64,000 bases of DNA. Origin: a virus (taxonomy: Duplodnaviria > Caudoviricetes). Each line of letters begins with the position of its first letter. The stretch's first letter is position 1. The DNA lies in the IMG/VR virus record IMGVR_UViG_3300042269_000666, positions 12,507 to 76,506 of that record. The stretch is one strand, 5' to 3'. Positions 19,214 to 43,401 of the stretch are shown here, piece after piece. The translations under genes and the position numbers were made by a program. Below the pieces are notes generated by a model, which saw only the letters and a program-made list of their open reading frames with translations, was not told where the DNA came from and made no database searches.

Positions 19214-19591
19214 TTATTTTTTTGCCAAAAGAGCCGCCAAAGCTTCTTCAAAAATGTGTCCGTGCAGGTATGCAAGAGCTTCATGATTGTCAAAGGTTAT
19301 TTGTATATTGCATACCTGCAATATTCGCATTGCAATATGTAAGCACTCATGAGACAGTGTACCCATATTAGAAATAGAATGATTGTATTCAGGCATCCAA
19401 ATAAAACCTAAACATTCAGCTGTTTTGGCTTCTTCTAACAATTCGCTATATCCGGCATAAAAACACTGTTTTGACGGAGGCAGTTGAAACACTCTTTTGC
19501 GATATGCCTCACATTCTTTATAACTGCCTATAAATATTGTTACAGGAATATTATAGGTATTGTTTTCTAAGATTTTATAGACTTTTTTCAT
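19214..19591 (-). CDS. Small phage protein with HExxH zincin motif
   Basis: SHECLH and downstream HEALAY. Confidence 0.55.
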   Translation of the reverse strand: MKKVYKILENNTYNIPVTIFIGSYKECEAYRKRVFQLPPSKQCFYAGYSELLEEAKTAECLGFIWMPEYNHSISNMGTLSHECLHIAMRILQVCNIQITFDNHEALAYLHGHIFEEALAALLAKK

Positions 19592-20997
19592 GATACTGTG
19601 ATAGTCCGTTTTAAGAATGTATAACGTTTACGGCTCATGATAAAGCCACCTGAGATTGCATCTACAAAGTCATCATGCGCACCACTGGGGAATTCCCTTA
19701 ACTGCTCTAAGGCTGCTTTATTCCACCAGGCGCGTTCCATGAAAACATTACCGACTTCAAATAAAGGCTCCATTTCTCCGGCACGTGATACTTTATCAGA
19801 ACTTACAGTGACCTTATCAACTATACGCCGTCCCTCTAAGATGCTTTTTAAAATCGTATAGGTGTCTTTATACCCTCCGGCACTTTCCACCCCTATACGG
19901 ACGCTGGAACCGTCTCTATCGGTAGTTTTCAAAATAAGATTATTACGCTCCAAGGCTTCTTTTTGACAAAATGCCAAATCTTTGATGAATAGTTGCCAGA
20001 GGTTATTTTTACGCCTGACTCCAACCAACGCCCCAGCCGTAAAGTCAGGATCAGCTTTAGCGCGTTCTTTTTCTCCTGAGGCCAAGTCCCAAAAGCGGTA
20101 ATAGCGGATATCTGATGGACATTTATCAATGATATTTACGTTATCAACCTTAAGCATGTTCCCTCCGCGCAAGACAGGCTCACACTGCAACAGTGCCGCA
20201 CTTTGATAACTGCCCAATGTAGCAAACTGCTTTTCATACCATTCGGCAGAAAAGCGTTCTGGGAAAAGATAATTACCATTAATATCACGCGCCGGAAAGC
20301 TCATAATTTCGTATTTGGGAAAGTCCGGGTTATAATCCTCGCTATTTTTGTCATTACGGTTTTTTATTCTGCCGATAATATCATCTCTATGCCATGGAGT
20401 AGCCAGTATTATGACAATATGCACTGGGGCAAGGCGTGTAATCAAATTGCCTCTGAAATTATCCCATTGCTTATTGCGCTCTGTCTCTGATTCGGCAATT
20501 GAGCGTCCACGCAGATAGTCATCTATAATTAAAACATCAGCGCCTTTACCAGTAGCACCTGCAGAGATTGTACACGACTGGAATTTTCCGTAATGCTTTC
20601 TTATTCCCCAGGTAGAAACAGACGCTGATTCACTTGATATTTTTAAACTAGGAAAAACTTGACTGTATTCCGGAGACTTAAATACATTACGGGCATCACG
20701 GCTCATAGCTTGAGATAATTCTTCTCCGTATGTGCTCAGGATAATTTCAGATTCAGGATTATGACCAAGGAAAAATGGAGGAAAATGACGGGAAATGATT
20801 TCTGATTTACCATGCCGGAACGGAACCGTACAAATCAGGTAAGTAGATTTGCCGTTCTTATAGTCATACATTGCCCTGTCAAGCCGTGTGGTAATGGCGC
20901 TAGTATGCCGCCCGACAATCAAAGGCCGGGAGTCCTGACGGACTGCTTTCATGAATTCAAGCATCCGGAATTTAGCAAGCAGTTTTTTCTTCATCAC
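19588..20997 (-). CDS. terL: Terminase large subunit
   Basis: Walker A-like PFRHGKS, Walker B VLIIDD, nuclease WDLAS, C-terminal HDDFVDA. Confidence 0.93.
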   Translation of the reverse strand: MMKKKLLAKFRMLEFMKAVRQDSRPLIVGRHTSAITTRLDRAMYDYKNGKSTYLICTVPFRHGKSEIISRHFPPFFLGHNPESEIILSTYGEELSQAMSRDARNVFKSPEYSQVFPSLKISSESASVSTWGIRKHYGKFQSCTISAGATGKGADVLIIDDYLRGRSIAESETERNKQWDNFRGNLITRLAPVHIVIILATPWHRDDIIGRIKNRNDKNSEDYNPDFPKYEIMSFPARDINGNYLFPERFSAEWYEKQFATLGSYQSAALLQCEPVLRGGNMLKVDNVNIIDKCPSDIRYYRFWDLASGEKERAKADPDFTAGALVGVRRKNNLWQLFIKDLAFCQKEALERNNLILKTTDRDGSSVRIGVESAGGYKDTYTILKSILEGRRIVDKVTVSSDKVSRAGEMEPLFEVGNVFMERAWWNKAALEQLREFPSGAHDDFVDAISGGFIMSRKRYTFLKRTITVS

Positions 20998-21674
20998 AAA
21001 GTTATCTTAAAATCAGGGGATTTGTCTTTTAATTCTTCTATTCGCTTTAAAGATGCCTGATATTCTTCTTCTGAATATTTAACCGGCATATGAATTTCAT
21101 CTGTAGAAAAGAGAGCATGGGTTGCTTTTTCAAGATCGTCCAGGCATTTGCCACCGTGCTGTGCTGCCGCATGCGCTAAAAAAAGTTCACTCCACGCGTT
21201 GTATTTTCCGACTTGGTTTGCCAGCTTGAAAAGATTCAGCAAAATTGGAATAGGTTCCTGCATTAAAGCTTCAAACGTATAGCATGGAAATTTATTAACG
21301 ATTTTCGCCGTGATGAATTCAAAATTGATATTTCCTGATGCCCCGTCAGCAGAAGCTTTATCATCATGACGGATCACCCGTTTCGATATGCCAAAGAATA
21401 ATTTTCCGGCAATATGTGCGGTGTCGCTGTAATCAAACAACAATAATTGTTTCCACTCTTTACTGGGCCATACTGTTTTGATTATTGCACGTAAACGCTT
21501 ACGACCTGCAGCCATGCTCTGCGGAGTTGGATTTTTCGCGACTTCGTCAAGAATATCAATATATTCATCATAGAACGTCGCAGGGAGCAAAGGTACAAGA
21601 AACTCCCTGCGACGACGATCTATTACTTTGATAGACCGATTTTTTAAAAATGGAAAAAGTTTATTAAGCAGCAC
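20994..21674 (-). CDS. Putative tail assembly chaperone (G/T-like in one frame)
   Basis: Directly follows major tail gene; helical 226 aa. Confidence 0.5.
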   Translation of the reverse strand: MLLNKLFPFLKNRSIKVIDRRRREFLVPLLPATFYDEYIDILDEVAKNPTPQSMAAGRKRLRAIIKTVWPSKEWKQLLLFDYSDTAHIAGKLFFGISKRVIRHDDKASADGASGNINFEFITAKIVNKFPCYTFEALMQEPIPILLNLFKLANQVGKYNAWSELFLAHAAAQHGGKCLDDLEKATHALFSTDEIHMPVKYSEEEYQASLKRIEELKDKSPDFKITL

Positions 21675-22152
21675 CGCTAGTCACCGCATAAAGTACATCA
21701 GCATCAGCATTTGAGGTGTTCAGAACCGCCTCAAAAGTAATCTCGATACCATGATCTTTGGTGCCGTCAACGTCATAGGAAAAAGCTTTTTCTACGACAG
21801 CGTTGTTTATGGTATGAATTCGATCTCCACCGATTTCAGACAATACCAATGGATGCTTTTCAGCTGCCGCCATTACATCGACACCAATTTCAGCACCGGT
21901 AATTGATTTGCCGGCACCGAGCAACAATTCCAAAGCCGGAGTGATTTCTTTAAACTTAGCTTTGACGATCATTTTGATTTCAATGAGCTTTTTCGCTACA
22001 ACGTTGCCTTTGGCCTGATTGCAGGTCACCTCGATATATTTATTTTCACGAGTGATATTTACCGCATCCTCAGTGCCGCCAAGCAGAACGTCATTGTATT
22101 TGACCGAACAAGGCTTATCACAAAAATTCTCTACATTGTAACCATCGGGCAT
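21664..22152 (-). CDS. Putative major tail (tube) protein
   Basis: 162 aa, LLGGTEDAVNIT..EVTCNQ..HGIEITFEAV beta-rich pattern; GGAGG RBS. Confidence 0.7.
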   Translation of the reverse strand: MPDGYNVENFCDKPCSVKYNDVLLGGTEDAVNITRENKYIEVTCNQAKGNVVAKKLIEIKMIVKAKFKEITPALELLLGAGKSITGAEIGVDVMAAAEKHPLVLSEIGGDRIHTINNAVVEKAFSYDVDGTKDHGIEITFEAVLNTSNADADVLYAVTSGAA

Positions 22153-22199
22153 TTTATACCTCCATGTTTAAAAGTTTCAACTGCTTTACACCATCTCTA

Positions 22200-22220
22200 T
22201 ATCAGTAAACGAAGTGTCAA
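22200..22220 (-). promoter_or_regulatory. Late-block motif upstream of major tail gene
   Basis: TTGACA (22220-22215) overlapping the upstream stop; 62 nt to ATG, the outlier of the set. Confidence 0.45.
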
Positions 22221-22594
22221 CAAGTGAGAGTTTTCGCTTTTATTTTGAGGTTAGCGCTTACTCCTGTGACATCTTTGCCTTTGTGTGAAGTGGGATAAGT
22301 AGCTATCGAGCCGATTTTCAGGATAGTCAAATTCTGTGAATAATACGGCAGGGACGCGTTTATTTTCGCGGCAATTCTCAAAGCATCGTCCCGGTCTTTG
22401 TACCGTCCCAGTATTTGTACCGTCAGGATTGGGATTGACGGGAAATTGTCAGGATCACAGGACTCTATGTGTATGCCGACCGCGTCGACTACTTTAGCGT
22501 TCAGGATTCCGCGAAATATGGTTTTATCAACGGTCATCTCAAGCTTTTCAGCAAAGTAACCTATCAATGCATGCTCTAAATCAATAATAGTCAT
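22217..22594 (-). CDS. Putative tail terminator / tail completion protein
   Basis: 125 aa, TIFRG, VQILGRYKDRDDA; typical size and motif. Confidence 0.6.
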   Translation of the reverse strand: MTIIDLEHALIGYFAEKLEMTVDKTIFRGILNAKVVDAVGIHIESCDPDNFPSIPILTVQILGRYKDRDDALRIAAKINASLPYYSQNLTILKIGSIATYPTSHKGKDVTGVSANLKIKAKTLTC

Positions 22595-22602
22595 GAAACT
22601 GT

Positions 22603-22663
22603 ACTCCTTTTGATAATGATGTTTCTTGTCAATATTGACAAACCCTGCTTATCTCAAAAGGAG
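22603..22663. promoter_or_regulatory. Back-to-back pair of late-block motifs sharing a 16-bp palindrome
   Basis: TTGTCAATATTGACAA (22626-22641); each strand reads TTGACA-N14-CAAAAGGAG, then ATG. Confidence 0.65.
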
Positions 22664-22670
22664 CTTTTTT

Positions 22671-25391
22671 ATGTCTGACGGTTTGGACTTAGGTAGAATC
22701 GGTTACGAAACTTATATAAACGATAAGCAGTATGAAAAGACACTACGCAAGATGGAGAATGATGCCGAACGTTCCGGCAAAAGTATAATGAAATCGCTTT
22801 TCGGTGCGTTGAGTATTTATTCCGGCTATCGTTTCTTCAAGGGATTGGTGCAGTCTGCTTCTGATCTTATAGAAGCAGAAAACAAATTCAGGGTGGTATT
22901 CCAATCAATAGGTGATTCAGCAGAAAAAGCAAGGAAGCGACTGCAAAAGGCTTTCGGGCGTTCAAAACTGGAATCTGCGGAATTACTTGGAAATGCAGGC
23001 GATATTTTAACTGGCCTTGGATTTAGTGCTGAAGCCGCATTGAAAATGTCATCTCAAGCTGCAGAGCTGTCAATTGATTTAACATCTTTGCAGAATTATA
23101 AAGGCGGCGCCAAAGGTGCTATGGAAGCAATGACTGCTCTGATGGTAGGAGAAACTGAACGGGCTAAAGCATTAGGTATACTTGTTCGTCAGGAATCTGC
23201 GGAATTCAAAAATTTAGTCAAGCATTATATGGAAGTTGAAAAGATGACCTTAGAGCAGGCTAAAGCACAAGCCGCTTTAGATATTGCTATCAAACAATCA
23301 AAAAATGCTATCGGCGATTACGCGAGAACAGCGGAAGAATTTGCCAACTCTTCACGCCGTGCAGGTGAACGAATACAGGATATTGCCTCAAAACTGGGAA
23401 AGAACCTCATTCCTTTGGCTTCAAAGATAATCCGGTTGATCTCATGGGGGACTGATGTGCTTGGAGATATGAACGGGACACTGGTAAGCTCTACAGCATA
23501 CTTCGGCATATGGATTGCCAGTATGTACGGATTGGAAAAAGTATTCGGCATAATGGGGAAAATTAAAAATGCCGTCAATGAGGCAGCTGTTAATGCCGGT
23601 TATATGTCTGCGGAAGCTTTAGCCGCAAAGCAGGCAGAGGAATTAAAGGTTGCAGAAAACCTCAAATCAAACGCTATTCGTCGTGCCCAGAATAAGAAAA
23701 GGGCTCTTGATGAAGCCGTTAACTACAAGATGGAAGCAAAGACCGCTTTTAAAGCTGAACGCCAGAAATACGCGGAAGCCAAAAAAGCCGGAACTGCAAC
23801 CTTGGAGCAAAAAGAAAAACTTAAGAATGCGGCTGGCAAATACCGTCAGAGCCTGGCTAGTCTGACCCGTGCAGAAAGGCAATACCGACGCGCCCAGATA
23901 GCGGCAAATATTACTTCTGCCCGTGCAAGCGCAACGCTCAACAGAAATACAATAGCTACAAAAGTTAACGCAACCGCAAAATATGCTCTTGGACGTGCCG
24001 TTTTATTTACCAAAGCCTGTTTTAAATCTTTGTGGGCCGCAATTGTCGCTAATCCGATTGGGGCGATACTGGCTGTGCTGGGATTGGCTATTTCCGCAAT
24101 GAATGCCTGGGGAGATAGCATAAGGCAAACAGCCGCAGAACAAATAGAATTAGCAAAGAACGCCTCTGAGCTTGCAGATAAAAGGCTGGATTCAGGCAAC
24201 AAACAACGCTTGGCTGACTTGGATAGTCTTGACAGGCTCAAGCGACTGGCAACCGCAGAACGCCTGAGTAATGATGAGAAAGCAGAAGCGAAAGAGCTTA
24301 TTGATGATCTATCAAAACGCTACGGTGATCTTGGAATATCAATTGACAAGACTACAGGAAAATTGAACATTCAGGCCGGGGCATTTGATAAGATCAATAA
24401 AAAAATGCTTGCTCAGGCTCAAGCTCAACGCAAAGCCGTCATTAAAAAGAAGATGGCTGAAATTGAAGCCCTGAAAGCGGAAAATAAAGCATTGGGAAGC
24501 TGGGGCGCTCAAGGCTTCTTCTGGATGAATTCAGAATCAAATAAAGCCAAGCAGGATGCCAACGCCAAAAGAATTAATGCCCTTTGGGATGAAGTCGGGG
24601 CAATGAAAATGGCTGTCAGAAATGCGACTGCTGTTGATAAAGAAAATGATCAGGAAAGGAAAAATAAAGTAAGACAAGCTAAAAATGCAGCAACCAAGAA
24701 AAAATATAAAGAATATGAGGAGCAAGAAGCTGAATGGAGAAACAACCGTTTAAGCGACTATGAACGAGAGCTGAAAGCAATAAATGAAATTGTTGATGCT
24801 CAAAAAATGCGTGCGCAAGAACTTTATAGATTGAAAGAATTATCAAAAGAAGACCTTGAAGCCTCTTTAAAACTGGCAGAATCAGAACGTAAACGCCTGA
24901 CTGATAAGCTGAATGCCGAACGCCAAGCGGAAGAAGCCCGTAAACAGGCTCAGAGAGCGGAGTTATCCCGGGACCTTGAGTATAATCGATTAAAAGCCCA
25001 ATTCCTTGCAGACGGCAAGCTTGACAGGCAGGAAAATATTTCACTGGCAGAAAAAGAGGTTGAACTACAGAAACAGCGTGTAGCGGAAGCCAAAAAGGCA
25101 GCGGAACAGGCAAAAGCCGAGAATAAGGCACAAACTGAAAATGCTTTGGCTCAAGCTCAGATAGAACTTGGTGAAAAAATGCGTGATCTTAAAGCCTTGA
25201 CTGATGCCCCGTTAAAAGCACGGCGAAGCATATCTCAAACTGGCGGTTTTCTGGCAACAAGAGTTTCTCTGATCGGCAATCAAGACCCGGCAAAAGAAAC
25301 AGCCAAGAACACCAAAGACATCGTAAAACATGTTAAGAAAACCGAGCAGAATACTAAAAAGATAGCTGAAAAGACTTTGACGTTTGATTAA
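22671..25391 (+). CDS. Tape measure protein
   Basis: Long Ala/Lys-rich helical protein, ASDLIEAENKFRVVF, central hydrophobic segments; start placed at ATG 22671 after AAGGAG. Confidence 0.85.
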   Translation: MSDGLDLGRIGYETYINDKQYEKTLRKMENDAERSGKSIMKSLFGALSIYSGYRFFKGLVQSASDLIEAENKFRVVFQSIGDSAEKARKRLQKAFGRSKLESAELLGNAGDILTGLGFSAEAALKMSSQAAELSIDLTSLQNYKGGAKGAMEAMTALMVGETERAKALGILVRQESAEFKNLVKHYMEVEKMTLEQAKAQAALDIAIKQSKNAIGDYARTAEEFANSSRRAGERIQDIASKLGKNLIPLASKIIRLISWGTDVLGDMNGTLVSSTAYFGIWIASMYGLEKVFGIMGKIKNAVNEAAVNAGYMSAEALAAKQAEELKVAENLKSNAIRRAQNKKRALDEAVNYKMEAKTAFKAERQKYAEAKKAGTATLEQKEKLKNAAGKYRQSLASLTRAERQYRRAQIAANITSARASATLNRNTIATKVNATAKYALGRAVLFTKACFKSLWAAIVANPIGAILAVLGLAISAMNAWGDSIRQTAAEQIELAKNASELADKRLDSGNKQRLADLDSLDRLKRLATAERLSNDEKAEAKELIDDLSKRYGDLGISIDKTTGKLNIQAGAFDKINKKMLAQAQAQRKAVIKKKMAEIEALKAENKALGSWGAQGFFWMNSESNKAKQDANAKRINALWDEVGAMKMAVRNATAVDKENDQERKNKVRQAKNAATKKKYKEYEEQEAEWRNNRLSDYERELKAINEIVDAQKMRAQELYRLKELSKEDLEASLKLAESERKRLTDKLNAERQAEEARKQAQRAELSRDLEYNRLKAQFLADGKLDRQENISLAEKEVELQKQRVAEAKKAAEQAKAENKAQTENALAQAQIELGEKMRDLKALTDAPLKARRSISQTGGFLATRVSLIGNQDPAKETAKNTKDIVKHVKKTEQNTKKIAEKTLTFD

Positions 25392-25666
25392 TCAATAGAG
25401 GTGAAATACGGGCAGGTTTCTTCGCCTGTCCAAATTTCATCTGATATATACTTGAATTTGGGGCAGGAACGATTCACGGGCTGGCGAATATCGCTATGCT
25501 TATAAAGCTTGCAGTCATAACACTGTTTGCAGGAATGACGGCTATCGTCTAAAGACATGCATTCTGCCCCGTCAATGATTTTTATTCTTCCTTTTATTTC
25601 CGGAAGATTTCGGATTGCTTCAAGGTTACGCTCCTGTTCTTCCTTGCTGACTTCATTTAACTTCAT
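25388..25666 (-). CDS. Small Cys-rich protein downstream of minor head protein (immunity candidate)
   Basis: CKQCYDC..C..CPYF; start at 25666 overlaps the upstream stop. Confidence 0.5.
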   Translation of the reverse strand: MKLNEVSKEEQERNLEAIRNLPEIKGRIKIIDGAECMSLDDSRHSCKQCYDCKLYKHSDIRQPVNRSCPKFKYISDEIWTGEETCPYFTSID

Positions 25667-27098
25667 ATTTAACACCTGAATTTTTCCATACTTTTTTATT
25701 AACATGATGCGCAATGGTAGCTTTGAATTTCTTGTATGGAACTTTGTTATTTAGGTATCTTTGCTGTAATTCGTTATAAGTATCATACCACTTGCCAAGC
25801 AAATTCGCAACATCTTTTGCTGATAAATATTGTTCCAGGCTAAGAGAATAGGTGTGCCTTGGCGAAACTATACGCAATTCTTTCGCTCCACTGCCCAGGA
25901 ATGTAGCAATATCGTCCATTGAAAAACTGGCATCAACTGGATGATTATGGGTAACAATGTTATTTCTTGCAAAATTTGTCGGGATATTAGGCACGGTATT
26001 AGTTGTACCCTGTTTAGCCCATACTAATTTGCCTGTTTCAGAATCAAAAATGCCGGCATGTTCAAAATTACCGTTTGCGATTTTTTCCTCAAAATCTTTT
26101 TGATTATCCGGATAGGTTTCAAATTCCTGCTTGAACTTTTTCATCTTACGGGTTCTTGGAGATTTTAAAGAGCCTTTTTTACGGTATTCGCGCCATGCTT
26201 CTTTATCATCTTTCTGCTCTTTGCCTTTGCTGTTCAGCCCATTATTAGGCCGTCCTTTTTCGTCAAAATCCTCTCCGGCAATCATCGGATCAACAGCAAC
26301 CATGCGGTGAGTGCAATTCGGGTGAAATAATCCTGATGATCGAGCCGATTCGATAGACGGATATTTGCCAGTACCGCTGATAGAGAGCAAACGCCCCTCC
26401 CAGACAGCACAGGCGGGGCAGGGGTTGCCGGACGTACTGATTGCCACAATATCGTTTTTCTCATCGCTACAGCCGTGCAAATAGGCTTCACGGGCGTTGT
26501 TGTGAAGCACTGTACGGCTTAACATTTCAAAATACGCGTCAGAGTTCCACTTCCTGCCGTCTTTTGCTATGAAAATGAATTTCTCGCCACCATTCTCATA
26601 GAACAGGCGTTTTGACACAGCTACTTGAGTTTCACCAGTCAAGGAAGATTCACGCATAACTCGTGCTGAAATACGCCGCAGGTTATTGATTGCAGCTGTG
26701 GACATCTGCTTTGTTGCCCCGGCAATGTGTGTGAAGTCATCTTCCAGCATGAGTTTCATTGTGTTTTTATTCAGGTTGCCGACTACTTCACTTGGATTTT
26801 CGGCAAGGTCAACGAGTGCTGAATGATAAAAGCTCTGAGCAACATAAGTAATTGCCGCTTTTGCGGTTTTCCGGTACTCCTGTTCAAAATCGGCGAACAT
26901 GCCCTGCAGTTCCTCCATAAGCATAACCAGGCGTGGCCCAGTAAATGAAGAACGTTGCTGCAGGACATATTCTTTTATGCGATCCTCAACACGTTCACGT
27001 GCCGCAAGGTAAATTGCGTACATGTCTTTTTCCTTTGCGGAAAGTTCTGTGTAGCCTTTGCTGGCATGGCTGTTGAGGAAAGCACGAATCAGGTTCAT
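25653..27098 (-). CDS. Minor head (MuF/minor capsid-like) protein with C-terminal JAB/MPN-like domain
   Basis: WNSDAYFEMLSRT, CPACAVWEGR, LFHPNCTH; C-terminal THNHPVDASFSMDD. Confidence 0.8.
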   Translation of the reverse strand: MNLIRAFLNSHASKGYTELSAKEKDMYAIYLAARERVEDRIKEYVLQQRSSFTGPRLVMLMEELQGMFADFEQEYRKTAKAAITYVAQSFYHSALVDLAENPSEVVGNLNKNTMKLMLEDDFTHIAGATKQMSTAAINNLRRISARVMRESSLTGETQVAVSKRLFYENGGEKFIFIAKDGRKWNSDAYFEMLSRTVLHNNAREAYLHGCSDEKNDIVAISTSGNPCPACAVWEGRLLSISGTGKYPSIESARSSGLFHPNCTHRMVAVDPMIAGEDFDEKGRPNNGLNSKGKEQKDDKEAWREYRKKGSLKSPRTRKMKKFKQEFETYPDNQKDFEEKIANGNFEHAGIFDSETGKLVWAKQGTTNTVPNIPTNFARNNIVTHNHPVDASFSMDDIATFLGSGAKELRIVSPRHTYSLSLEQYLSAKDVANLLGKWYDTYNELQQRYLNNKVPYKKFKATIAHHVNKKVWKNSGVKYEVK

Positions 27099-27463
27099 AT
27101 TCCAATTACTCCAAGCGCGGCTTTAAAAGCAATGGATAAACCAGTAGTTACAGCATTCAGGAGCAGGTTTGAGACTTTCAGCGACAAGATGGCCTGATGG
27201 TCTACTGCAATAGCACGGTAATTGTCAAGGTTTGCCAAATGACGCTTTTTCTCATCTTCGTCATTAGTAGCAAGCATGGCTTTTACTTCGGTTTCAACTC
27301 CTTTGAGGCACTGTTGCAAGAATGGACGGTCTTCTTTTTTGACTTCTTCTATCATTTCAGAAACGTCTTTTTTGAGTGCTCCAACGTATTCATCCCAATA
27401 TTGTCCAGCGGTCTTTTCCATATCAATCACCTCCAAATGGATTCCATGATTCAGCGTGTTCAC
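27095..27463 (-). CDS. Hypothetical helical protein with hydrophobic C-terminus
   Basis: Start may be MEKTAG at 27421; lysis-cassette position. Confidence 0.55.
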   Translation of the reverse strand: MNTLNHGIHLEVIDMEKTAGQYWDEYVGALKKDVSEMIEEVKKEDRPFLQQCLKGVETEVKAMLATNDEDEKKRHLANLDNYRAIAVDHQAILSLKVSNLLLNAVTTGLSIAFKAALGVIGI

Positions 27464-27905
27464 GGGCTTTTGTAATTACCTTTCGACTTGCCTGATAATT
27501 GAGAATGCGAGCAGTTTTGTCACCTTGGCTCATGGGGGTGCCGTCAGGATACTTACCAGCCTTTACGTATTCCTGATGTTCTTTCCCTGCAGTGTTCAAA
27601 TACGCCTCATAGGAATCCACAAGGGAAGTATTTACGCAGCCAGTCAATAGAAGAAACATTAAACCAAGAAGAATAAAAGCCGTCACTTTTTTCAGCCCTA
27701 ATTGTTTTTCCAGTTGCCGGAATTTTTCCCAACAGTCGCAATCATCTCTGCGAATTTTACAGACAGTATGATCTACCTTGTTTTTGTCGATGTTGGCAAT
27801 CTTCCAAAGAATCGCCCATACTCCACTGATTAACGCAATCAGGATGGTTACAAAAAGCCCGATGATTGTCACAAATAAAAGCATCATGTCAATTGTTACA
27901 TTCAT
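27423..27905 (-). CDS. Holin-like TM segment followed by an internal lipoprotein signal
   Basis: N-terminal TM helix, coiled segment, then KKVTAFILLGLMFLLLTGC lipobox. Confidence 0.55.
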   Translation of the reverse strand: MNVTIDMMLLFVTIIGLFVTILIALISGVWAILWKIANIDKNKVDHTVCKIRRDDCDCWEKFRQLEKQLGLKKVTAFILLGLMFLLLTGCVNTSLVDSYEAYLNTAGKEHQEYVKAGKYPDGTPMSQGDKTARILNYQASRKVITKAREHAESWNPFGGD

Positions 27906-27930
27906 TTTTTTAAATCTCCTCAGTTAATTG

Positions 27931-28335: not shown

Positions 28336-28337
28336 TG

Positions 28338-33667: not shown

Positions 33668-33966
33668 ACCGCCAGTTTATAAAATTCATGGACATTATCA
33701 AAAAGGTTGTCGATGCGCTGAGCTGACCGCAAATCAAACTCAGCTTCGTTTTTATCGATAAAAGTGCAATCAGCGGTTATCTCATAATCGCCAAGTCCTT
33801 TGCACATATAAAAGTCTTCATACTGCAATACGCCATTAGCATCGCGGTAATTGTCACTCATGATAAAGTAAGTACAGGGATGCTCGGCATATTCCGGCTT
33901 GTTATCGACAAAGTTCCCTGTCGGGATTCTAACTTTGCCAGTATCTCTGCATAGTTCTTCAAACAT
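33661..33966 (-). CDS. Putative head-closure/stopper protein
   Basis: Start placed at ATG 33966 behind AAAGGA, overlapping the portal stop; size and position fit. Confidence 0.5.
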   Translation of the reverse strand: MFEELCRDTGKVRIPTGNFVDNKPEYAEHPCTYFIMSDNYRDANGVLQYEDFYMCKGLGDYEITADCTFIDKNEAEFDLRSAQRIDNLFDNVHEFYKLAVC

Positions 33967-35434: not shown

Positions 35435-35469
35435 TCCAATTTGTTTTTATAAGTGGAGCGACGTGTCAA
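35435..35469 (-). promoter_or_regulatory. Late-block motif upstream of portal
   Basis: TTGACA (35469-35464)-N15-AAAA; 29 nt to ATG. Confidence 0.6.
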
Positions 35470-35504
35470 TACCATTCTCTTTATTACGCTTCCTATGTCT
35501 ACGT

Positions 35505-35760
35505 ATGTTATGATGGGGGCGGTCTTAGTCCCCCATCTAATAACAACGTATACGAGAGCGTACGCGATACACATATGTATATATCTATGATATATAGTTA
35601 AAAGTACTCAATACGATACATACTAGTAGGTAAGGTATCGTGTACGATACCACGTTACTTTGTTAAGTGGTAAGGTATCGTCAACAAACCCTGAAAAACG
35701 TCAAAAAGTAGTGTAAAAACGGTAAAAATAACGTATACGATACCACCTAGGTGATAACGT
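35505..35760. other. Origin-like non-coding element, copy A
   Basis: GATGGGGG/CCCCCATC hairpin, TATATATC-N3-GATATATA palindrome, three TACGATAC and two GGTAAGGTATCGT repeats. Confidence 0.6.
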
Positions 35761-35770
35761 ATTTTTGCGG

Positions 35771-35798
35771 TTGACATAGCAGGCTCTTTAAAAAGGAG
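35771..35798 (+). promoter_or_regulatory. Late-block motif upstream of plus-strand tail block
   Basis: TTGACA (35771-35776)-N14-AAAAGGAG; 30 nt to ATG. Confidence 0.6.
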
Positions 35799-35806
35799 TT
35801 TTCCAG

Positions 35807-36637
35807 ATGTCGACTATTGATAAATTATACCATAATCATGGACAGAGCAATGACGCGTACAACAAGGAAACAAATGTTGAAATACCATATTTGGTGACAG
35901 GTGTTGAAAGTGTTCAGGATGCAATTGATGCTCTTGCCGCGTCAGAAGATGTACCTAAATTTCATGGACGTTTGGTTGTAACCGGATATGACTTTGACGA
36001 ATTGTCTGCAGAGGGAGCATATCAGATTGTTGTAAAATACGGGTTCTCGGCAACTTCTTCTGAATCATGGTCAAGTTCTGATGATGCGGACAGTAATCCG
36101 GAAGTAACTATTGATATCGGGGCTAATTCCGATACTCGAATGCATTCGCTAAGACGTGTTGCTACAAGTTCCGGCGCTCCTGATTCAATTGAGAGCAAAA
36201 CTGCTATCGGCGTAGATGCTGACGGTAATATCAATGGCTGTAAAGTTCTTACCGGTTATCGTACTCGTACAGAAATATTTTATATGCCGTTGAGACGCTT
36301 GTCTACTAAATACGAGAAAGCCCTTGATCAACTGGTGGGAGCTATCAATAACAAAGCTTTTCGCGGTTATGCTGCTGGTGAAGTACGTTTTGACGGTGCG
36401 ACCTATACTTACAGAGAGGGGCAGGAAGAACCTGTTCGAGTTACTTTCAAATATTCGATTTCAGCCAACATGGAAAAAGTTAAATTCGGCAAATGGAAAA
36501 TGACTAAACGCGGATGGGATTACGCATGGATAAAATACACTACTGACGAAGCGGACGGTGAGCCGGTAGCCGAATATGCTGTGATCGATGAAGTAAGTAC
36601 ATATGACGACTTTGGAAAATTGGGGATAGGCAGATAA
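35807..36637 (+). CDS. Putative tail/baseplate (distal tail-like) protein
   Basis: 276 aa, AIGVDADGNINGC, FRGYAAGEVRFDGA, KRGWDYAWIKY; late motif upstream. Confidence 0.55.
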   Translation: MSTIDKLYHNHGQSNDAYNKETNVEIPYLVTGVESVQDAIDALAASEDVPKFHGRLVVTGYDFDELSAEGAYQIVVKYGFSATSSESWSSSDDADSNPEVTIDIGANSDTRMHSLRRVATSSGAPDSIESKTAIGVDADGNINGCKVLTGYRTRTEIFYMPLRRLSTKYEKALDQLVGAINNKAFRGYAAGEVRFDGATYTYREGQEEPVRVTFKYSISANMEKVKFGKWKMTKRGWDYAWIKYTTDEADGEPVAEYAVIDEVSTYDDFGKLGIGR

Positions 36638-36638
36638 T

Positions 36639-37505
36639 ATGGATAAGGTAAAAAAGGGTGATCCGTTAAGACTTTCGGCAGGATTTATCAATGATACCAT
36701 TGATTCAAACGTCAGGAGCAAACAACATGATTTGACCTTGAATAATTTACGCCTGAAAAATCTTGGTATTGTTACTGTACGGAATAATTCTGATAAAGAC
36801 CGCAAGATTTTTGAACCGATCAATATTGATGGCATTTTGCTTGATATCGAAAAGGATGGCGGCATAAAAACCAATGGCATCTTTAAAGGGGTGCTCGATG
36901 ATAAGATTGATATTTTCGCGGTGTGCCTGAATGCCATTCCTAAAACTAAAACCGGACGTGCCATGCTGGTTGGTATTACTCCGGCCAGAGTGAAAATTGA
37001 GAGTGCAACCCATAAGTACATCACAGTAAAAGACGGCATACTTGTTTCCTGCTCATCAGGTCCGGCACGTTTGTTAGGTTCTCAAAAAGACAATGGCGAA
37101 ACATGGGGCATGATTTACCTCGGCGGTACTGGCAGCGGAGGCAATAACTATACCGGTTTTTTCAGGCTTGAACCTGATGGCGAGAATACCGATACCATAA
37201 ATATTGTAGATGGCTCCGATACCCTTGGCGATAATTGCGGTATTTATGTATCTGGTATTGATAAAACTTTAGTACCCAAAACCAGCCTGAAAATATCCAC
37301 TGAATCTTACATAATGCTTTACGCTACTTATGCAGAGGAAAAGTGGACTATTGAAATAAAAGCCGAACCCAGCATGCCGGATTTTTCCGCTGAAAAGTTC
37401 ACAGCCTTGCTGGGTATCGTTAAATGGGATACCGAAAACAAGAAAATGGGTCAGCCCATACAGATTTGGAATAACGGAATTATCTACAATAACAGGTATA
37501 GTTAA
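36639..37505 (+). CDS. Putative tail tip/baseplate protein
   Basis: MDKVKKGDPLRLSAGFIN start typical of the gene following the above family; Gly-rich linker. Confidence 0.5.
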   Translation: MDKVKKGDPLRLSAGFINDTIDSNVRSKQHDLTLNNLRLKNLGIVTVRNNSDKDRKIFEPINIDGILLDIEKDGGIKTNGIFKGVLDDKIDIFAVCLNAIPKTKTGRAMLVGITPARVKIESATHKYITVKDGILVSCSSGPARLLGSQKDNGETWGMIYLGGTGSGGNNYTGFFRLEPDGENTDTINIVDGSDTLGDNCGIYVSGIDKTLVPKTSLKISTESYIMLYATYAEEKWTIEIKAEPSMPDFSAEKFTALLGIVKWDTENKKMGQPIQIWNNGIIYNNRYS

Positions 37506-37687
37506 GGCTTTTTGATTATGGTATATATTATTTTTGCTTTATCCAACTTATCTGTTAGTTCTTTTAAGGTTCTTCCGGAATATTTAGATTCTTCATCCAT
37601 TACTACGCTGTAACATCCGTTGTCGTATTTTCTGATGCTTGTTTGGGTGCCATTAATTGTAGCTTTTCCAATAAATTCGTAATTCAT
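37502..37687 (-). CDS. Small moron-like gene with its own promoter
   Basis: 61 aa, AAGGAG RBS, ATGAAA-N17-TATAAT upstream, opposite strand to neighbours. Confidence 0.55.
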   Translation of the reverse strand: MNYEFIGKATINGTQTSIRKYDNGCYSVVMDEESKYSGRTLKELTDKLDKAKIIYTIIKKP

Positions 37688-37773
37688 TTTACGCTCCTTA
37701 TGAGTTATTTACATTATACATGATTACGTATGATGTTTCATTTATTTATAAAAAAAATCAAGGAAATTAAATA

Positions 37774-38673
37774 ATGCAAAAACCTACTGCCTGGAGCGAC
37801 TGGAATGATTTACCGATACTGGCCTTGCCGTCAGTTAAAGGCTACGAGATGTATGAAGCGATCCGCGAACGCATTGAATATGTTTTCCCTGAAATGATTG
37901 CTGAGGATATGCCGTCCGCTTTGCGTCCACTGCTTACAGATTTTAACCCGAATAGCGATCATAAGGTTATTGAGCGGAATATGCACAAAGCTATTACGGA
38001 ACTTATCCCATGGTACCGGAACTGGACAAGTGACGATGCAAGGCTTTGGAATGAAGCAGATTTACTTGCTGCGCTGGGAGAAGAAAAACGCATAGAGCCC
38101 AACCCTTATTTTTTAAGCGCGAAATGGCTGAAACAGGCATTCAGGATCGTCAATTACCTCCGAAAAAAAGAGGACATCATTTCTATTACTTGGATTGATG
38201 AAGCCGAACCGGGATACACGGAGGGCAATACTTATGACGAACACAAAGCAATGTTTGAGGATGCAATCGACTTTTTCACGGCAGTTATCCAACCAGGTGG
38301 TGGAAGTGGCGGTGATATTTTTGGTTCTTCTGGCAGGCCGTCAAATGTGCTGTACTATTCCTGTGACCGCGATCCATGCGATTCTATGAACAGCTTTGTA
38401 CAGGCATTCAATGCTTTGAAATCGCAGTATACAGCAACAAAATACACGGTCGGTTTGTTTGTGGATTCATCCGGATCAATGAGTTTGCGTACTATACAGC
38501 CAGCCTATGATAACTTTGTAGCTTATATCAAAGAGTTTTATCCTGATTCACGTCTTGTGGAACGCACTGCCGGCAATGAAGCATGGCTTATATGGACTAA
38601 GGAGTATATAAGCCAGTTGAGATTTAACTTTGAGTTTAAAGAGGAAGAAGAAGCGGAATCACCCGCGAGCTAA
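37774..38673 (+). CDS. Virion protein with C-terminal vWA-like MIDAS motif
   Basis: VGLFVDSSGSM (DxSxS) after a GGGSGG linker. Confidence 0.55.
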   Translation: MQKPTAWSDWNDLPILALPSVKGYEMYEAIRERIEYVFPEMIAEDMPSALRPLLTDFNPNSDHKVIERNMHKAITELIPWYRNWTSDDARLWNEADLLAALGEEKRIEPNPYFLSAKWLKQAFRIVNYLRKKEDIISITWIDEAEPGYTEGNTYDEHKAMFEDAIDFFTAVIQPGGGSGGDIFGSSGRPSNVLYYSCDRDPCDSMNSFVQAFNALKSQYTATKYTVGLFVDSSGSMSLRTIQPAYDNFVAYIKEFYPDSRLVERTAGNEAWLIWTKEYISQLRFNFEFKEEEEAESPAS

Positions 38674-39027
38674 ACGAATAGTTCGCGGAAGTTCTGATTT
38701 CGCTTGTTTGAGAAGCCTTGCGGCACGGGGAGCTATGCCCGGATTATCGCCGTTAATCAGCGTGAAAGACTGGCTTAAGCCTCCGGGCAAGCTTTGACCA
38801 GTGACCACCTTACCTTCAGTTTGCTTGTTGTAATTCCTGATAAGAAATACAGCCTGTTCGCAATATGCTTTTTTCAGCGTGTCGCTTTCTTCTGCATTAT
38901 TCAATATCAGGTCATTACGCGCCATCTCCAGAGCTGCTTCACGGGTAGCTTCATCTTGTGAAGTCCAGTAAGCGCCATCAAGGTGTATGGCAAAATAATT
39001 GTTCGCAAATTCCAGTAATTCAGTCAT
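38659..39027 (-). CDS. Head-tail connector/adaptor
   Basis: FANNYF, LKKAYCEQAVFL, APRAARLLK; follows capsid block. Confidence 0.7.
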   Translation of the reverse strand: MTELLEFANNYFAIHLDGAYWTSQDEATREAALEMARNDLILNNAEESDTLKKAYCEQAVFLIRNYNKQTEGKVVTGQSLPGGLSQSFTLINGDNPGIAPRAARLLKQAKSELPRTIRLARG

Positions 39028-39033
39028 GATTAT

Positions 39034-39612
39034 TTACTCCGTAAACTCCTTGAGAGCCTCGTATTCTTCAATGCTTTTAGGCTGATACCTGCCACGGAAA
39101 TAACTCTTTTTGAGCTTTTCACACCAGCCGGCATTCTTGAAGTGCAGAACAGGAATTTGTTTCTGCTTTTTAGCCTGATCTTTGCTGGCTTGTTCTGCGG
39201 CTTCTCTGGCTGCTTTTTCCGCGTCCGCTTTAGCTTTTGCCTCTGCTTCGGCTTGCTGTCTTTTGGCAAAATCAGCTTCCGTTTCCGGTTTGCCCGGGTC
39301 ACCCTGTAAGCCTGGTTCACCGTTGGGATCGCCATGGGCTTGAATGATAGCTTCGCACATTTCAATCAATTCTTCATGGCTGTATTCTTCGATGGGCTTG
39401 AGTTCCTGTTTGCTGTTCCTGCAAAGGAAATCATAAACAGCTTCAGGATCATTAAGGTCTACTACCTCTGTTTCAGAAGTGTCTCCACCCTTTGCTACTC
39501 CGGTGGCTTCATCATACATCTTTTCAAGTTCTTCAAGCTTGTAGGAATTGATGCCTTTTTCCGGCTTCTTACCCATATCAGTCAGCTTGTCATAGATTTC
39601 TTGTTTAGTCAT
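39034..39612 (-). CDS. Hypothetical head-associated protein (HeH/LEM-like N-terminus)
   Basis: 192 aa directly after capsid gene. Confidence 0.5.
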   Translation of the reverse strand: MTKQEIYDKLTDMGKKPEKGINSYKLEELEKMYDEATGVAKGGDTSETEVVDLNDPEAVYDFLCRNSKQELKPIEEYSHEELIEMCEAIIQAHGDPNGEPGLQGDPGKPETEADFAKRQQAEAEAKAKADAEKAAREAAEQASKDQAKKQKQIPVLHFKNAGWCEKLKKSYFRGRYQPKSIEEYEALKEFTE

Positions 39613-39628
39613 AACTCACTCCGTGAAT

Positions 39629-39653
39629 AAAAAGGCGGCATATTTCAGCCGCC
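39629..39653 (-). terminator. Rho-independent terminator after major capsid gene
   Basis: Minus strand GGCGGC-N8-GCCGCC-TTTTT. Confidence 0.7.
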
Positions 39654-39666
39654 ACGATTATCGGAA

Positions 39667-40854
39667 TTAACCGGTAATGCCATCCATAAGGATGTGGTTA
39701 ACTCCCACGTTTTCAACGATGAACCCGACAGAACCCTGAATGGATTTTCTCACTTCACGGCTGGATGCGCTGGGCTCATCCTTTTTCTGCAGGCCGTCAT
39801 CAGTGAGCCAACCCTTTTGGCAGTCGGACTGCTTAACGATCGGCAGTCGGTTATTGCCCATATCAGAATCAACACGAACCTTGATGATGTGTCCCTCAAA
39901 GTCGATAGAGTCGATATACACACCAGCGGTATGGTCGGCTTTGGTAGTCTGAACAGCCAGCTGACTGTTAGCCATGTTGAAAGTATTGATAATACCCTTG
40001 TTGGTCGGAGATGCCCAAATGGTATCTACAACGCCGCCTGCGTCAAAAACCATCTTGATAGCAGCAACAACTTTTTCTTCGGCAAGAGCGCCGGTATTGT
40101 TGTAGAGCAACGGGGCACGGTTGCCATTGTTAGTATCAGTCAACTGGGAATACAATCCGGCAGACATATAGCGGTCGGAATCATCGACTGCTTTCTGTTT
40201 GCGTCCATGGATAGACATACGAGCGAGAGTTTCTGCAACCCTGATCATTGCTTCCTGAACGATGATATAAGTTGCATCTGCAACACTCAGGCCTTTTCCC
40301 ACGTAAATGGCATGCTTTGTCCAGTCCATGACTTCAAAGATGGTCTGCACATAGTTGCTGTAAACGCTGGTAAGCTCAGACATGCTCTTAACGTTCTTGA
40401 GGTCGGTATCCGCACCAGCGTAACCAATGACAGAAAACGCGGTCTGATCAGCATGGGCTGCGGCAGTAGAATCACCTGCGCCACGAGCATATACATCAAT
40501 GGTATTTGCCGCACGGTCTACAGCTTTGATAATGACCACTTCATCTTCCACCTGCAGAACATGACCGATATTCAGGCCTTTAAGTATATCGGCAGGCATT
40601 TTCAGTCCGGAAACAGCGACATTATCCCAACCGCCAGCAGCTCCATCGCCAATGAGTCCATCACGGCTGGTTTTGCTTCGGCTGTAGATATCAAACTGTT
40701 TATTGGTCAACGGGGTGTCAGGTGCGCCCATACCCTGATAAAAGGCACCTTTAAACGGACCAAGTTCGATAGCTTTGGCTACTGCCAGCACTACGGGGTC
40801 TTTCTTGGCTACAGGGTCTGAGAACTCTGTGAATTGTCCGAATTCAAAAGACAT
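39667..40854 (-). CDS. Major capsid protein (SU10/DUF5309-like)
   Basis: 395 aa after scaffold; SNYVQTIFE, RYMSAGL, DSIDFEG, SIQGSVGF; terminator follows. Confidence 0.8.
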   Translation of the reverse strand: MSFEFGQFTEFSDPVAKKDPVVLAVAKAIELGPFKGAFYQGMGAPDTPLTNKQFDIYSRSKTSRDGLIGDGAAGGWDNVAVSGLKMPADILKGLNIGHVLQVEDEVVIIKAVDRAANTIDVYARGAGDSTAAAHADQTAFSVIGYAGADTDLKNVKSMSELTSVYSNYVQTIFEVMDWTKHAIYVGKGLSVADATYIIVQEAMIRVAETLARMSIHGRKQKAVDDSDRYMSAGLYSQLTDTNNGNRAPLLYNNTGALAEEKVVAAIKMVFDAGGVVDTIWASPTNKGIINTFNMANSQLAVQTTKADHTAGVYIDSIDFEGHIIKVRVDSDMGNNRLPIVKQSDCQKGWLTDDGLQKKDEPSASSREVRKSIQGSVGFIVENVGVNHILMDGITG

Positions 40855-40859
40855 ACTCC

Positions 40860-41450
40860 TTACTCCTTATTTTGGTTGTTGTCGATTTCGGTTTGTAATT
40901 CTATTACTCTTGAGGCCTCACGTTTTGTCAGGTTATCTTTACCCAACAATTCGTTAAGCTCCGCTTCCTGGGTCTTGGTTTTGTCCTCAGGAGTTTTTTC
41001 ATTTCCTGAACCGCCACCACCTTTATTTACTTCCGCAGTGAAATATTTCGGCTTATCCTTTTTCAGGTTGTCCATAAAAGATTCGCCGTCTTTTTCGAGA
41101 TCAACTTTGTCTTTGCCGACAAGGTATTTGAGGTACTCTGGATCAGTAAACTTATGCTTAGAGGCCAGCTTGCTTACTGCAAGATCAAAATCCTGTGCGG
41201 TCTTGGCAGCCTTGACATCATCATTCTCTTTTTTGAGCTTTTCGTTTTCTTTTTGAAGCTTTTCCACTTCCGAAAGTTTGTCGTTTTCGGCATCGTCAAT
41301 TTTCTGCTGAGCTTCTGCAAGCTGTTGAGCAAGTTCTTTTTCCTTGCTGTCATCATGCTTCGGCTCGTTGTATTCCTGCAGAAACTTCTTTTCCGCGTCA
41401 GAAAGCTCTTCACCTTTCAAAACTTTTGCTAGGAGTACTTTGATTTTCAT
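40860..41450 (-). CDS. Head scaffolding protein
   Basis: Highly charged coiled coil, KPKYF..GGGGSG; precedes capsid gene. Confidence 0.8.
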   Translation of the reverse strand: MKIKVLLAKVLKGEELSDAEKKFLQEYNEPKHDDSKEKELAQQLAEAQQKIDDAENDKLSEVEKLQKENEKLKKENDDVKAAKTAQDFDLAVSKLASKHKFTDPEYLKYLVGKDKVDLEKDGESFMDNLKKDKPKYFTAEVNKGGGGSGNEKTPEDKTKTQEAELNELLGKDNLTKREASRVIELQTEIDNNQNKE

Positions 41451-41460
41451 ATGCTGGATA

Positions 41461-41490
41461 TCCCTTTTTACATAAGGCTTCCTTTGTCAA
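41461..41490 (-). promoter_or_regulatory. Late-block motif upstream of scaffold/capsid block
   Basis: TTGACA (41490-41485)-N15-AAAA; 34 nt to ATG. Confidence 0.6.
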
Positions 41491-41671
41491 CATTGAAAAA
41501 GACTTGTGGAGTGATAGTGTATGAAAAAGAAAAGGTGAGTATTTATGGATAATGGCTACTGGTAATCAATAAAATGGAACATTTAACCTTTAATTATTTA
41601 TAAAGCTACTTTTGATTTTTCAACACAGAGAATACATAAAATTAAAGCAAAAATAATTAAAAGATAAGAAA

Positions 41672-42409
41672 ATGAATAATCAACAAATACAGGGTTGTAA
41701 GGCGTTAACTGAAAATGTATTAGAGTATTTAGATGAGTTTATTCGCAATGCAATATCAAGAAGTTCAAATATTCAATGTGTCAAAAGCATAGCTCATGAT
41801 TTGAATGTAATGAATGAATTTATTGGTCAAGAATCTCCAGATTGGATAAAAAATTTGATAGGGTTATGTGCTCGAGGACAAACAGACCCAAATACAACAC
41901 AAGAAATAATTAAGCTTAGGTCAGCTATTGAGTATTTCTCTTGGGAAGATTTTTATAACGATGATGGAGATATAGACAAATTAGACTATGATAAAATATT
42001 TACCGAAGAAGCCAATAAAAATGGGTTGAATGAGGCTCTTGATCGTTTAGTTGAATGCTTGGAAATAATTAAAAATGAGTCTCAGTTTAATTTTTCTAAG
42101 CAAACACGCATTGATATTGAAACTTTAATAATTGGACTAAAAAAGTCAAAAGGGAAATCAGAATCTTCAATAAAAACATGGGTGGAGTCAGTTTGGGCAC
42201 TTATAAAAACTTGTATTCCTCATGCTGATAAAATTGAAGCATTAAACAAATTGCTTTCTGATACTCAACACGCTTATAATGATGTATCTTTTAAAATAAT
42301 TGAAGCAAAGAACATGGTTATAGCAAAAATTCAAAATGAATTTTGCAATCAGAAGCTCCTGCCCAAATTTGAAGAGGCTAAGCAAATTGCAAACAATAAT
42401 TCTGAGTAA
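41672..42409 (+). CDS. AT-rich moron, unknown helical protein
   Basis: 245 aa, visibly AT-rich, antisense to flanking late genes. Confidence 0.65.
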   Translation: MNNQQIQGCKALTENVLEYLDEFIRNAISRSSNIQCVKSIAHDLNVMNEFIGQESPDWIKNLIGLCARGQTDPNTTQEIIKLRSAIEYFSWEDFYNDDGDIDKLDYDKIFTEEANKNGLNEALDRLVECLEIIKNESQFNFSKQTRIDIETLIIGLKKSKGKSESSIKTWVESVWALIKTCIPHADKIEALNKLLSDTQHAYNDVSFKIIEAKNMVIAKIQNEFCNQKLLPKFEEAKQIANNNSE

Positions 42410-42412
42410 ATA

Positions 42413-42898
42413 TTAAAAATCACCTTTCAGTAACTTATCCAGGAACTTTTCGCGCTCCTCGAAGCTCATATTCTCAATGAGCTTTTCAGCCATAGCTACT
42501 TCGGTGGCATTCTCAACCTCAGCTTCAAGCTTGTGCTTGTCGCTCCACTTTTCAGGACGGCGGTTAACCAGCCAGAACTTGATCGCGTTCACGTCCGGTT
42601 CAAAGGTTTTAGTCTTGACGGTTTGTTTAACAATTTCACCATCGCCATCGGTTTCCAGATGCCGTTCGCGGACTTCAAAGCCCAAACAACGCTTAAGCAG
42701 GGCGTTCTCAACCTTGGTATCAACCGGAGCTTTCCCGCGCGCGATAGCCTCCAAAAACTCTAGGTGCTTCTTCTGGTAATTGTAGTAAGTTGCGGTCGAT
42801 ATGCCGAGTTTTTGGGCGATCTGTTCGTCGTTAAGTCCCTCTCTCGCAAACCCTTCCGCAAGTATTGGAAAGTTTTCGTTATATTTGCCTTTGCTCAA
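42413..42898 (-). CDS. terS: Terminase small subunit
   Basis: HTH DEQIAQKLGISTATYYNY, VENALLKR, AIKFWLVNRRPEKW. Confidence 0.85.
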   Translation of the reverse strand: MSKGKYNENFPILAEGFAREGLNDEQIAQKLGISTATYYNYQKKHLEFLEAIARGKAPVDTKVENALLKRCLGFEVRERHLETDGDGEIVKQTVKTKTFEPDVNAIKFWLVNRRPEKWSDKHKLEAEVENATEVAMAEKLIENMSFEEREKFLDKLLKGDF

Positions 42899-43401
42899 AA
42901 TAGTTTCTCCTGAACCGCATCACCCTCTACAAACTGTTTCTTGTATCTGTTTCTTGCAGCGGTAATTTTCGACAATGTCAGGCAGAAGATACTTTTCAGT
43001 TCCGGATGATTTCTTACCGCAAATAAAAGGGCTGTATTAATGCGCTGTCGAGATACGCCTCGCTCCCTTGCCATTTCAGCCTGTGTAATATTCGGATTGC
43101 GAACCAAGGCACTAAGGAGCGAGAGCGTATTATCATCAAGAGAAAGTATGTAATTCAGAACTTCTGACAAATTCTCGTAATTATCACTTTTACCGATTTT
43201 ATCACACTCGTTGCTTTTACCTGCAACACGAAAAGAGTTCTTGTCGTAATCTACTGCATTACGAACTCTGTTGGCGTTATCAGGGTTGGGACTGCTGGTC
43301 ACATATTCGCACGAGTCCCAGTACTCACAAACATTTTTGCAGGATTGGTCGAAGTGTCCGAAACATTCACCTGCGGTTTTTTCGTAGTTTCGTTCTGTCA
43401 T
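42895..43401 (-). CDS. Cys-rich, sigma70 region-4-like HTH protein; candidate late activator
   Basis: N-terminal C-x7-C-x3-C-x5-C; C-terminal ITQAEMARERGVSRQRINTAL; start moved to ATG 43401 behind AAAAGGG. Confidence 0.6.
   Translation of the reverse strand: MTERNYEKTAGECFGHFDQSCKNVCEYWDSCEYVTSSPNPDNANRVRNAVDYDKNSFRVAGKSNECDKIGKSDNYENLSEVLNYILSLDDNTLSLLSALVRNPNITQAEMARERGVSRQRINTALLFAVRNHPELKSIFCLTLSKITAARNRYKKQFVEGDAVQEKLF

Follow-up and report, generated by a model that had tools for sequence, protein, structure and literature searches.

Late gene blocks on both strands of a virus contig

The DNA analysed here (hereafter the window) is a 64,000-nucleotide (nt) stretch of a tailed virus (Caudoviricetes), positions 12,507 to 76,506 of IMG/VR record IMGVR_UViG_3300042269_000666, and makes up the last 64 kb of that 76.5-kb, metagenome-derived virus contig. 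It carries the late genes, those for the virion, of a probable temperate siphovirus-type prophage in an order that departs from that of its relatives. Few features of long-tailed phages are as conserved as their head-tail gene order, and whether co-regulation, recombination modules or assembly timing keeps it so is debated. An earlier reading of the sequence alone (the original prediction) described a late region scrambled into blocks on both strands, with terL about 21 kb from terS. Open reading frame (ORF) listing combined with PHROG and Pfam scans of the window proteins confirmed the strand layout and the block list, and the terS-terL distance was measured at 21.4 kb. Minus-strand genes form four runs broken up by plus-strand segments at 41672-42409, 35807-38673 and 22626-25391. 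The canonical siphovirus late order, co-linear on one strand, was not found, three segments being inverted.

Seven genes gave firm PHROG matches, namely terL (19588-20997(-), E 1.6e-74), a MuF-type minor head protein (25653-27098(-), E 5.5e-21; PF06152), a collagen-like fibre of 664 amino acids (aa; 31238-33232(-), E 4.6e-30), portal (33959-35434(-), E 1.1e-45), an SU10-type major capsid protein (39667-40854(-), E 3e-11; PF17236 SU10_MCP), scaffold (40860-41450(-), E 1.1e-13) and terS (42413-42898(-), E 1.5e-43). Terminase, portal and HK97-type capsid genes are all present. Weak PHROG matches, with roles backed by position in the usual-order relatives described below, were obtained for the tape measure (22626-25391(+), 3.3e-5), a 162-aa tube-like protein (21664-22152(-), 6.8e-5) and a neck protein (33275-33667(-), 6.1e-5). 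No late-region ORF matched a sheath family in the PHROG scans, and Pfam gave nothing usable for about 20 small ORFs. In a fold search with a structure model of the 162-aa tube candidate (predicted local distance difference test, pLDDT, ~54), tube-like folds ranked first with no match at E <= 0.001; the same search with a model of a 276-aa tail-tip protein (pLDDT ~54) had no match at that threshold and was uninformative. Every expected virion function occurs in single copy, and GC content is even (0.40-0.45).

The late genes fall into ten blocks, numbered here by their place in the usual order of related phages. From the right, Block 1 (42413-43449(-)) holds a helix-turn-helix (HTH)/Cys-rich protein (168-184 aa) and terS, and is followed by a plus-strand 245-aa ORF (41672-42409(+)) that has no homologue in the related loci searched and is possibly a moron. 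Block 4 (38659-41450(-)) comprises scaffold, major capsid protein and two connector-position ORFs of 192 and 122 aa. Block 9, inverted (35807-38673(+)), contains three tail-tip-position genes of 276, 288 and 299 aa, for which PHROG and Pfam gave no family match and whose putative role comes from position in relatives. An antisense 61-aa ORF lies between the 288- and 299-aa genes (37502-37687(-)), and independent assemblies call the same gene. Blocks 3 and 6 (33275-35434(-)) bring together the portal and, directly after it, two small neck-type ORFs of 117 and 130 aa that are positioned after MuF in usual-order relatives; the 130-aa ORF is called at 128 aa in the Logan assemblies, a different start codon being probable. 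Block 10 (27095-33232(-)) encodes the 664-aa fibre, a 432-aa protein with a YadA-like repeat and a 406-aa protein, then four small ORFs including a holin-like one of 160 aa, the only ORF with two transmembrane-like segments. Block 5 (25388-27098(-)) holds the MuF-type protein and a small Cys-rich ORF. Block 8, inverted (22626-25391(+)), is the tape measure, with a probable start at ATG 22671 (906 aa). Block 7 (20994-22594(-)) consists of a 125-aa neck/terminator-like, a 162-aa tube-like and a 226-aa chaperone-position ORF, which stand in the same order before the tape measure in the relatives L046, L010 and L100. Finally, Block 2 (19214-20997(-)), with terL and a 125-aa ORF (phrog_1365), usually follows terS; here it closes the late region and is coupled to the 226-aa ORF.

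Translational coupling had been proposed at the odd junctions, and overlaps are indeed present: the portal overlaps the next ORF and the ORF at 27095 overlaps MuF as ATGA. The 226-aa ORF and terL overlap as GTGA (TGATG if the start is ATG), not as ATGA as had been stated. The labels closure/gp10, tail terminator, chaperone and lysis are putative and go back to that first reading.

The scrambled order is derived from the usual one

To place this layout among related phages, we searched genomes, IMG/VR and metagenomes with the portal protein, which yielded 90 loci; contigs with terL homologues added more, and all window proteins were mapped onto them. About 35 related loci (40-75% protein identity) hold the same genes on one strand, mostly in the usual order HTH-terS-terL-(125 aa)-portal-scaffold-capsid-192-122-MuF-117-130-125-162-226-tape measure-276-288, followed by the fibre. 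They include the nearest relatives by terL (63-65%; L100, L101 and L103) and by capsid (75%; L012/L091), and the succession tape measure, 276, 288 in L091 supports the tail-tip position of Block 9. Usual-order relatives from Lentisphaerota/Victivallales metagenome-assembled genomes (MAGs) and metagenomes (L010/L038, L046, L100, L103, L012/L091) have the HTH, terS, terL, portal, scaffold, SU10-type capsid, MuF, neck, tube and tape measure families in common with the window at 30-75% identity, and differ from it in having all late genes in the classical order on a single strand. Named relatives came only from Victivallales/Lentisphaerota MAGs and from one Lentisphaerota isolate genome (terL 60% identical), and a Lentisphaerota (Victivallales-like) bacterium is the probable host.

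Numbered by the usual order, the blocks of the window run 1,4,-9,3,6,10,5,-8,7,2. None of the nine internal adjacencies is preserved, well beyond random variation, and the module end has changed as well. The exact reversal distance is 9, and at least four events are needed if transpositions, each removing three breakpoints, are allowed. In a quick portal tree, the window and L027, a related metagenome locus, nest inside the usual-order clade with 99% support, and the scrambled layout is therefore derived; the window branch is long, so that its exact sister is uncertain. Synteny also bears out that this is not a well-known conserved layout; most relatives keep the usual order, and a milder variant characterises one clade. 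Long-tailed phages otherwise have a fixed gene order, and the prophage is one of the rare exceptions in nature.

The milder variant belongs to a well-supported sister clade (L005-L007, L015, L018, L072 and others) with the order terS-portal-scaffold-capsid-(MuF)-HTH-terL (phrog_979 type). As in the window, terS and terL are apart and an HTH protein accompanies a packaging gene; in contrast, only a single block (HTH and the phrog_979-type terL) is displaced there, by 4-7 kb and on one strand, in a conserved and mild arrangement. Separation of terS from terL thus recurs in this phage family, albeit over 4-7 kb and on one strand. In L006, terL is followed by genes without a phage-family match, one of them weakly like a sugar epimerase, and the locus may be a head-only cassette. 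The closest cultured phages in the collection searched are only 30% (terL) and 24-27% (portal) identical, and since none is close enough they give no information on gene order. Single-protein scans of IMG/VR gave no matches for portal and terL, and the capsid scan found only usual-order relatives. The terL family of the window was present in none of the five MAGs carrying portal relatives. A side observation concerns MuF: in the usual-order relative L103 (13459-14961) and in L104 (10870-12372) the MuF protein has at its C terminus an ADP-ribosyltransferase toxin-type domain (PF03496), matching the known pattern of MuF-fused polymorphic toxins.

The layout is reproduced in independent assemblies and in relatives

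An artificial origin of this arrangement has to be considered, as the source is a metagenome-derived record and the same contig contains another prophage, richer in GC and with tail genes homologous to those described here, so that strain variants, or the two prophages, could be suspected of having been joined into a chimera. Logan contigs from two sequencing runs (SRR35183615 and SRR35183622), assembled per run with a different assembler from that of the window's record, are 100% identical to window positions 17734-27510, 31672-46048 and 58009-64000. All strand switches and, outside the co-directional 27.5-31.7 kb, all transposed junctions are covered, and the same genotype is found in all three assemblies. 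Furthermore, two odd junctions recur in loci from two other metagenomes, L027 and L028, that have 71-75% nucleotide identity to the window (about 25% divergence): L027 has the junction of inverted tail-tip block, portal and 117-aa ORF, and L028 that of portal, 117, 130 and fibre. Neither occurs in any usual-order relative. Along with the overlaps at the odd junctions, which suggest coupling, and the even GC content, these results uphold the argument against misassembly made in the original prediction, and we give that explanation next to no credence. The scramble is real and inherited within a sublineage.

Selection has acted on these genes as well. Between the window and L027/L028 the proportion of synonymous differences (pS) is 0.65-0.97, that is saturated, whereas that of nonsynonymous differences (pN) is 0.12-0.22, and dN/dS is below 0.1 where calculable; by this measure the late genes are under purifying selection.

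The three opposite-strand segments, together with the perfect 16-nt palindrome TTGTCAATATTGACAA at one divergent junction, could also be read as signs of programmed inversion by an invertase or shufflon-like system, the observed order being one of several switchable states. Family scans found no invertase gene within the prophage, however, and the plus-strand segments have no flanking inverted repeats beyond chance-level ones of 20-30 nt with ~70-85% complementarity. All three assemblies, with contigs running through the junctions, are in the same state, which is conserved in L027 and L028, and inversion in place cannot yield transposed blocks. We therefore consider a switchable locus highly improbable. 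Recombination between long repeats is likewise unsupported, because the block borders carry only chance-level direct and inverted repeats.

A TTGACA element precedes block-first genes

A search of the window for the pattern TTGACA-N10-17-AAAA-N6-28-ATG returned 10 matches at 8 distinct sites, against 1.15 expected, and none of 100 shuffles reached 10. Seven of these sites lie directly before block-first genes, namely the HTH gene, scaffold, the tail-tip block, portal, fibre, tape measure and the 125-aa neck gene. The palindrome mentioned above lies at 22592-22673, where two TTGACA-N15-AAAA elements, each with a ribosome-binding site (RBS), stand back to back on both strands for the 125-aa ORF (-) and the tape measure (+). 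Further elements are found at 33230-33272(-), 35423-35469(-), 35771-35809(+), 41448-41490(-) and 43399-43440(-). A generic promoter/terminator scan found no enrichment (47 sites vs 42.9 in shuffles).

The element is not confined to the window. In 515 kb of non-redundant relatives we found 25 sites on the gene strand and none on the other, located before portal (8), terS (4) and tape measure (1); others precede unassigned genes, some of them just upstream of neck-gene homologues. Block starts thus carry a family-specific signal. Before scaffold, the tail-tip block and the 125-aa neck gene, no copy occurs in the relatives examined, and the window copies at these positions are therefore new. Many of the copies in relatives fold into a hairpin in which a GGAG ribosome-binding site forms the 3' arm. 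In a typical example the arms read CTCCGC...GCGGAG with TAAAA in the loop, often with a T-run before the ATG (L012 9948-9989, L101 13083-13126, L103 17578-17617, L058 9509-9552 and others). Late promoter, activator site and translational operator are all candidate roles.

Usual-order relatives also bear TTGACA-N15-A-run copies before terS, portal or tape measure and before a gene shortly upstream of the neck genes, in numbers of 1-4 compared with 7 in the window. As these copies are already present there, a multi-unit late region would predate the scramble. The original prediction held that per-block control signals freed gene order. A shared, strand-specific element at seven block starts, in excess of expectation, speaks in part for such signals. 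An identity as promoters is left unsupported by spacing and by the generic scan, the signals may instead have been gained after rearrangement, and the predating copies are compatible with the freeing of gene order without proving it.

The late region belongs to a prophage with apparently intact temperate functions

The left end of the prophage is marked by an attL core that resembles the 3' part of a tRNA gene (17710-17763(-)); at least 27 nt of it (17710-17736) are repeated ~275 nt past the right end of the window, and its extent to ~17763 is deduced from breaks in Logan contigs. No complete tRNA gene was found in the window. A search inside the window alone gave no att pair, attR lying beyond the window end and being supplied by a Logan contig that runs 302 nt past it and ends in 27 nt identical to 17710-17736. 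Logan contigs break exactly at the att repeat, and GTATCAAGAAT repeats resembling integrase arm-type sites occur near both prophage ends. Taken together, att repeat, arm-type repeats and contig breaks delimit a prophage of ~46.5 kb with att sites (17.7-64.3 kb). The att core and arm-type repeats lie at window 17710-17830 and at L107 5993-6294. A tyrosine integrase (17900-19207(+), PF00589, E 2.9e-16) follows attL, and a CI-like repressor with HTH_3 and Peptidase_S24 domains (62416-63135(+)) lies at the right end. The temperate traits of integrase, att repeats and repressor were all found. To the right of the late region, genes for ParB, methylases, a helicase, a beta clamp and AAA proteins are all on the minus strand.

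Two further explanations were weighed. Since the nearest relatives differ by block (capsid 75% to L012, terL 65% to L103, the 299-aa tail-tip gene 80% to the second prophage on the contig), the region could consist of two or more interleaved elements, such as a phage and a satellite or nested prophages. Nevertheless, no function is missing or duplicated, and in relatives all blocks belong to a single module. One integrase and one att pair occur, with no internal att-like repeats, and differing nearest relatives are ordinary phage mosaicism. Interleaving is in our judgement very unlikely. The second possibility is a defective or domesticated prophage, either a cryptic remnant or a gene transfer agent- or tailocin-like element, which would not propagate itself as a virus and for which gene order would have ceased to matter. 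In its favor, virion production is an inference only, no endolysin was recognised in the family scans of the window, and portal homologues also occur in related bacteria in regions without recognisable structural genes. On the other hand, all expected virion genes are intact and in single copy, and they are under strong purifying selection although synonymous sites are saturated. The att repeat and the genes for the integrase, the CI-like repressor and replication are likewise intact, and three assemblies contain the same genotype. We regard decay or domestication as unlikely, although less remote than a switching or composite locus.

The portal homologues in question (46-51% identity) were observed in L004 (G002 contig 9, 73-131 kb), L031, L034 and L043, sometimes with a downstream gene of ~100 aa. 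Their neighbours include a Ser/Thr kinase, a pilin-like protein and regulators, with no recognisable phage structural function. No other homologue of a window protein was found in 58 kb around the L004 portal, and the nearest terminase-like gene is 21 kb off.

A second prophage and a putative defence island lie to the left

The first 23 kb of the contig (~50% GC) are the tail end of another prophage, prophage 1, in which tail genes have the usual direction (tape measure, 274, 299, 295, fibre). Compared with their homologues there, the 276-, 288- and 299-aa genes and the fibre of the window are 32, 44, 80 and 53% identical. The shared sequences lie at contig positions 4050-7941, before the window, and at window positions 37774-38673 (tail-tip gene, 80% protein identity) and 31238-33232 (fibre segments, up to 72%). 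This suggests exchange between the co-resident prophages, despite their difference in GC (~50% vs 42%). Between both prophages, at 11209-17242 of the window, are genes for a Dcm methylase, a double-GHKL ATPase protein, a Vsr endonuclease and a DUF4365 protein, which together look like a defence island.

A shuffled late region probably organised in several units

We consider it likely that the window holds one apparently intact, ~46.5-kb temperate siphovirus-type prophage at a tRNA-like site, whose late gene set has been shuffled from the usual order, is inherited and under selection, and is organised in element-headed units. The single-copy late genes would descend from a usual-order ancestor through a series of rearrangements leading to the ten blocks in their present signed order. 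A small sublineage has kept this layout stably, its genes remaining under purifying selection. The late region would be expressed as at least seven separate units, each headed by TTGACA-N15-A-run-RBS, and with timing freed from one long operon a shuffled order would be tolerated. The prophage is probably viable. The element may drive the separate late units, and a multi-unit organisation, partly present in usual-order relatives, may be what makes shuffling tolerable.

Several points weigh against this interpretation. No virions, induction or transcripts have been seen. Positions 27511-31671, with the co-directional fibre genes, are without a second assembly, and both Logan runs may come from the same population as the window's record. 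Moreover, the element is off sigma-70 spacing: a perfect -35-like hexamer is followed by 15 nt and an A-run joined to the RBS, compared with the TTGACA, 16-18 nt and TATAAT-like -10 element taken to define sigma-70 promoters. Lastly, convergent genes at the 3' ends of the plus-strand inserts abut or overlap without a terminator-like hairpin (15-nt overlap of the 299-aa and 122-aa ORFs at 38659-38673, 4-nt overlap of the tape measure and a 108-aa ORF at 25388-25391, 3-nt gap at 42409-42413), which is awkward for independent transcription units.

A more specific proposal, which we put forward only tentatively, is that the late genes of this Lentisphaerota phage family are controlled by a small portable cassette made up of TTGACA, 15 nt, an A-run and an RBS, often with a hairpin bearing the Shine-Dalgarno sequence in its 3' arm, new copies of which would let blocks move or invert without functional loss.

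By analogy, the nearest precedents would be Cluster S mycobacteriophages, with minor tail genes out of place, and, in its way of working, the short late units of T4. In T4, the virion genes are split among numerous short units on either strand, and every unit has a late signal of its own, similar to the multi-unit working suggested here. T4 is a large virulent myovirus with another late promoter and sigma factor, and no homology is implied. Marvin and other Cluster S phages are reported to carry two minor tail genes atypically in the right arm (PMC9872701). These are likewise siphoviruses with a broken virion-gene order, and only these two minor tail genes are reported as misplaced there, as opposed to every module adjacency here (PMC9872701).

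The scramble also cautions against reliance on gene order in prophage and virus calling. An apparently functional scrambled genome can here be compared directly with usual-order relatives that share its proteins and its regulatory element, and this comparison makes the question of why gene order is fixed testable. If the portable cassette is real, this phage family would be a natural experiment on why tailed phages keep their gene order, and portal genes found among genes without structural-protein matches would reflect the same fluidity in another way.

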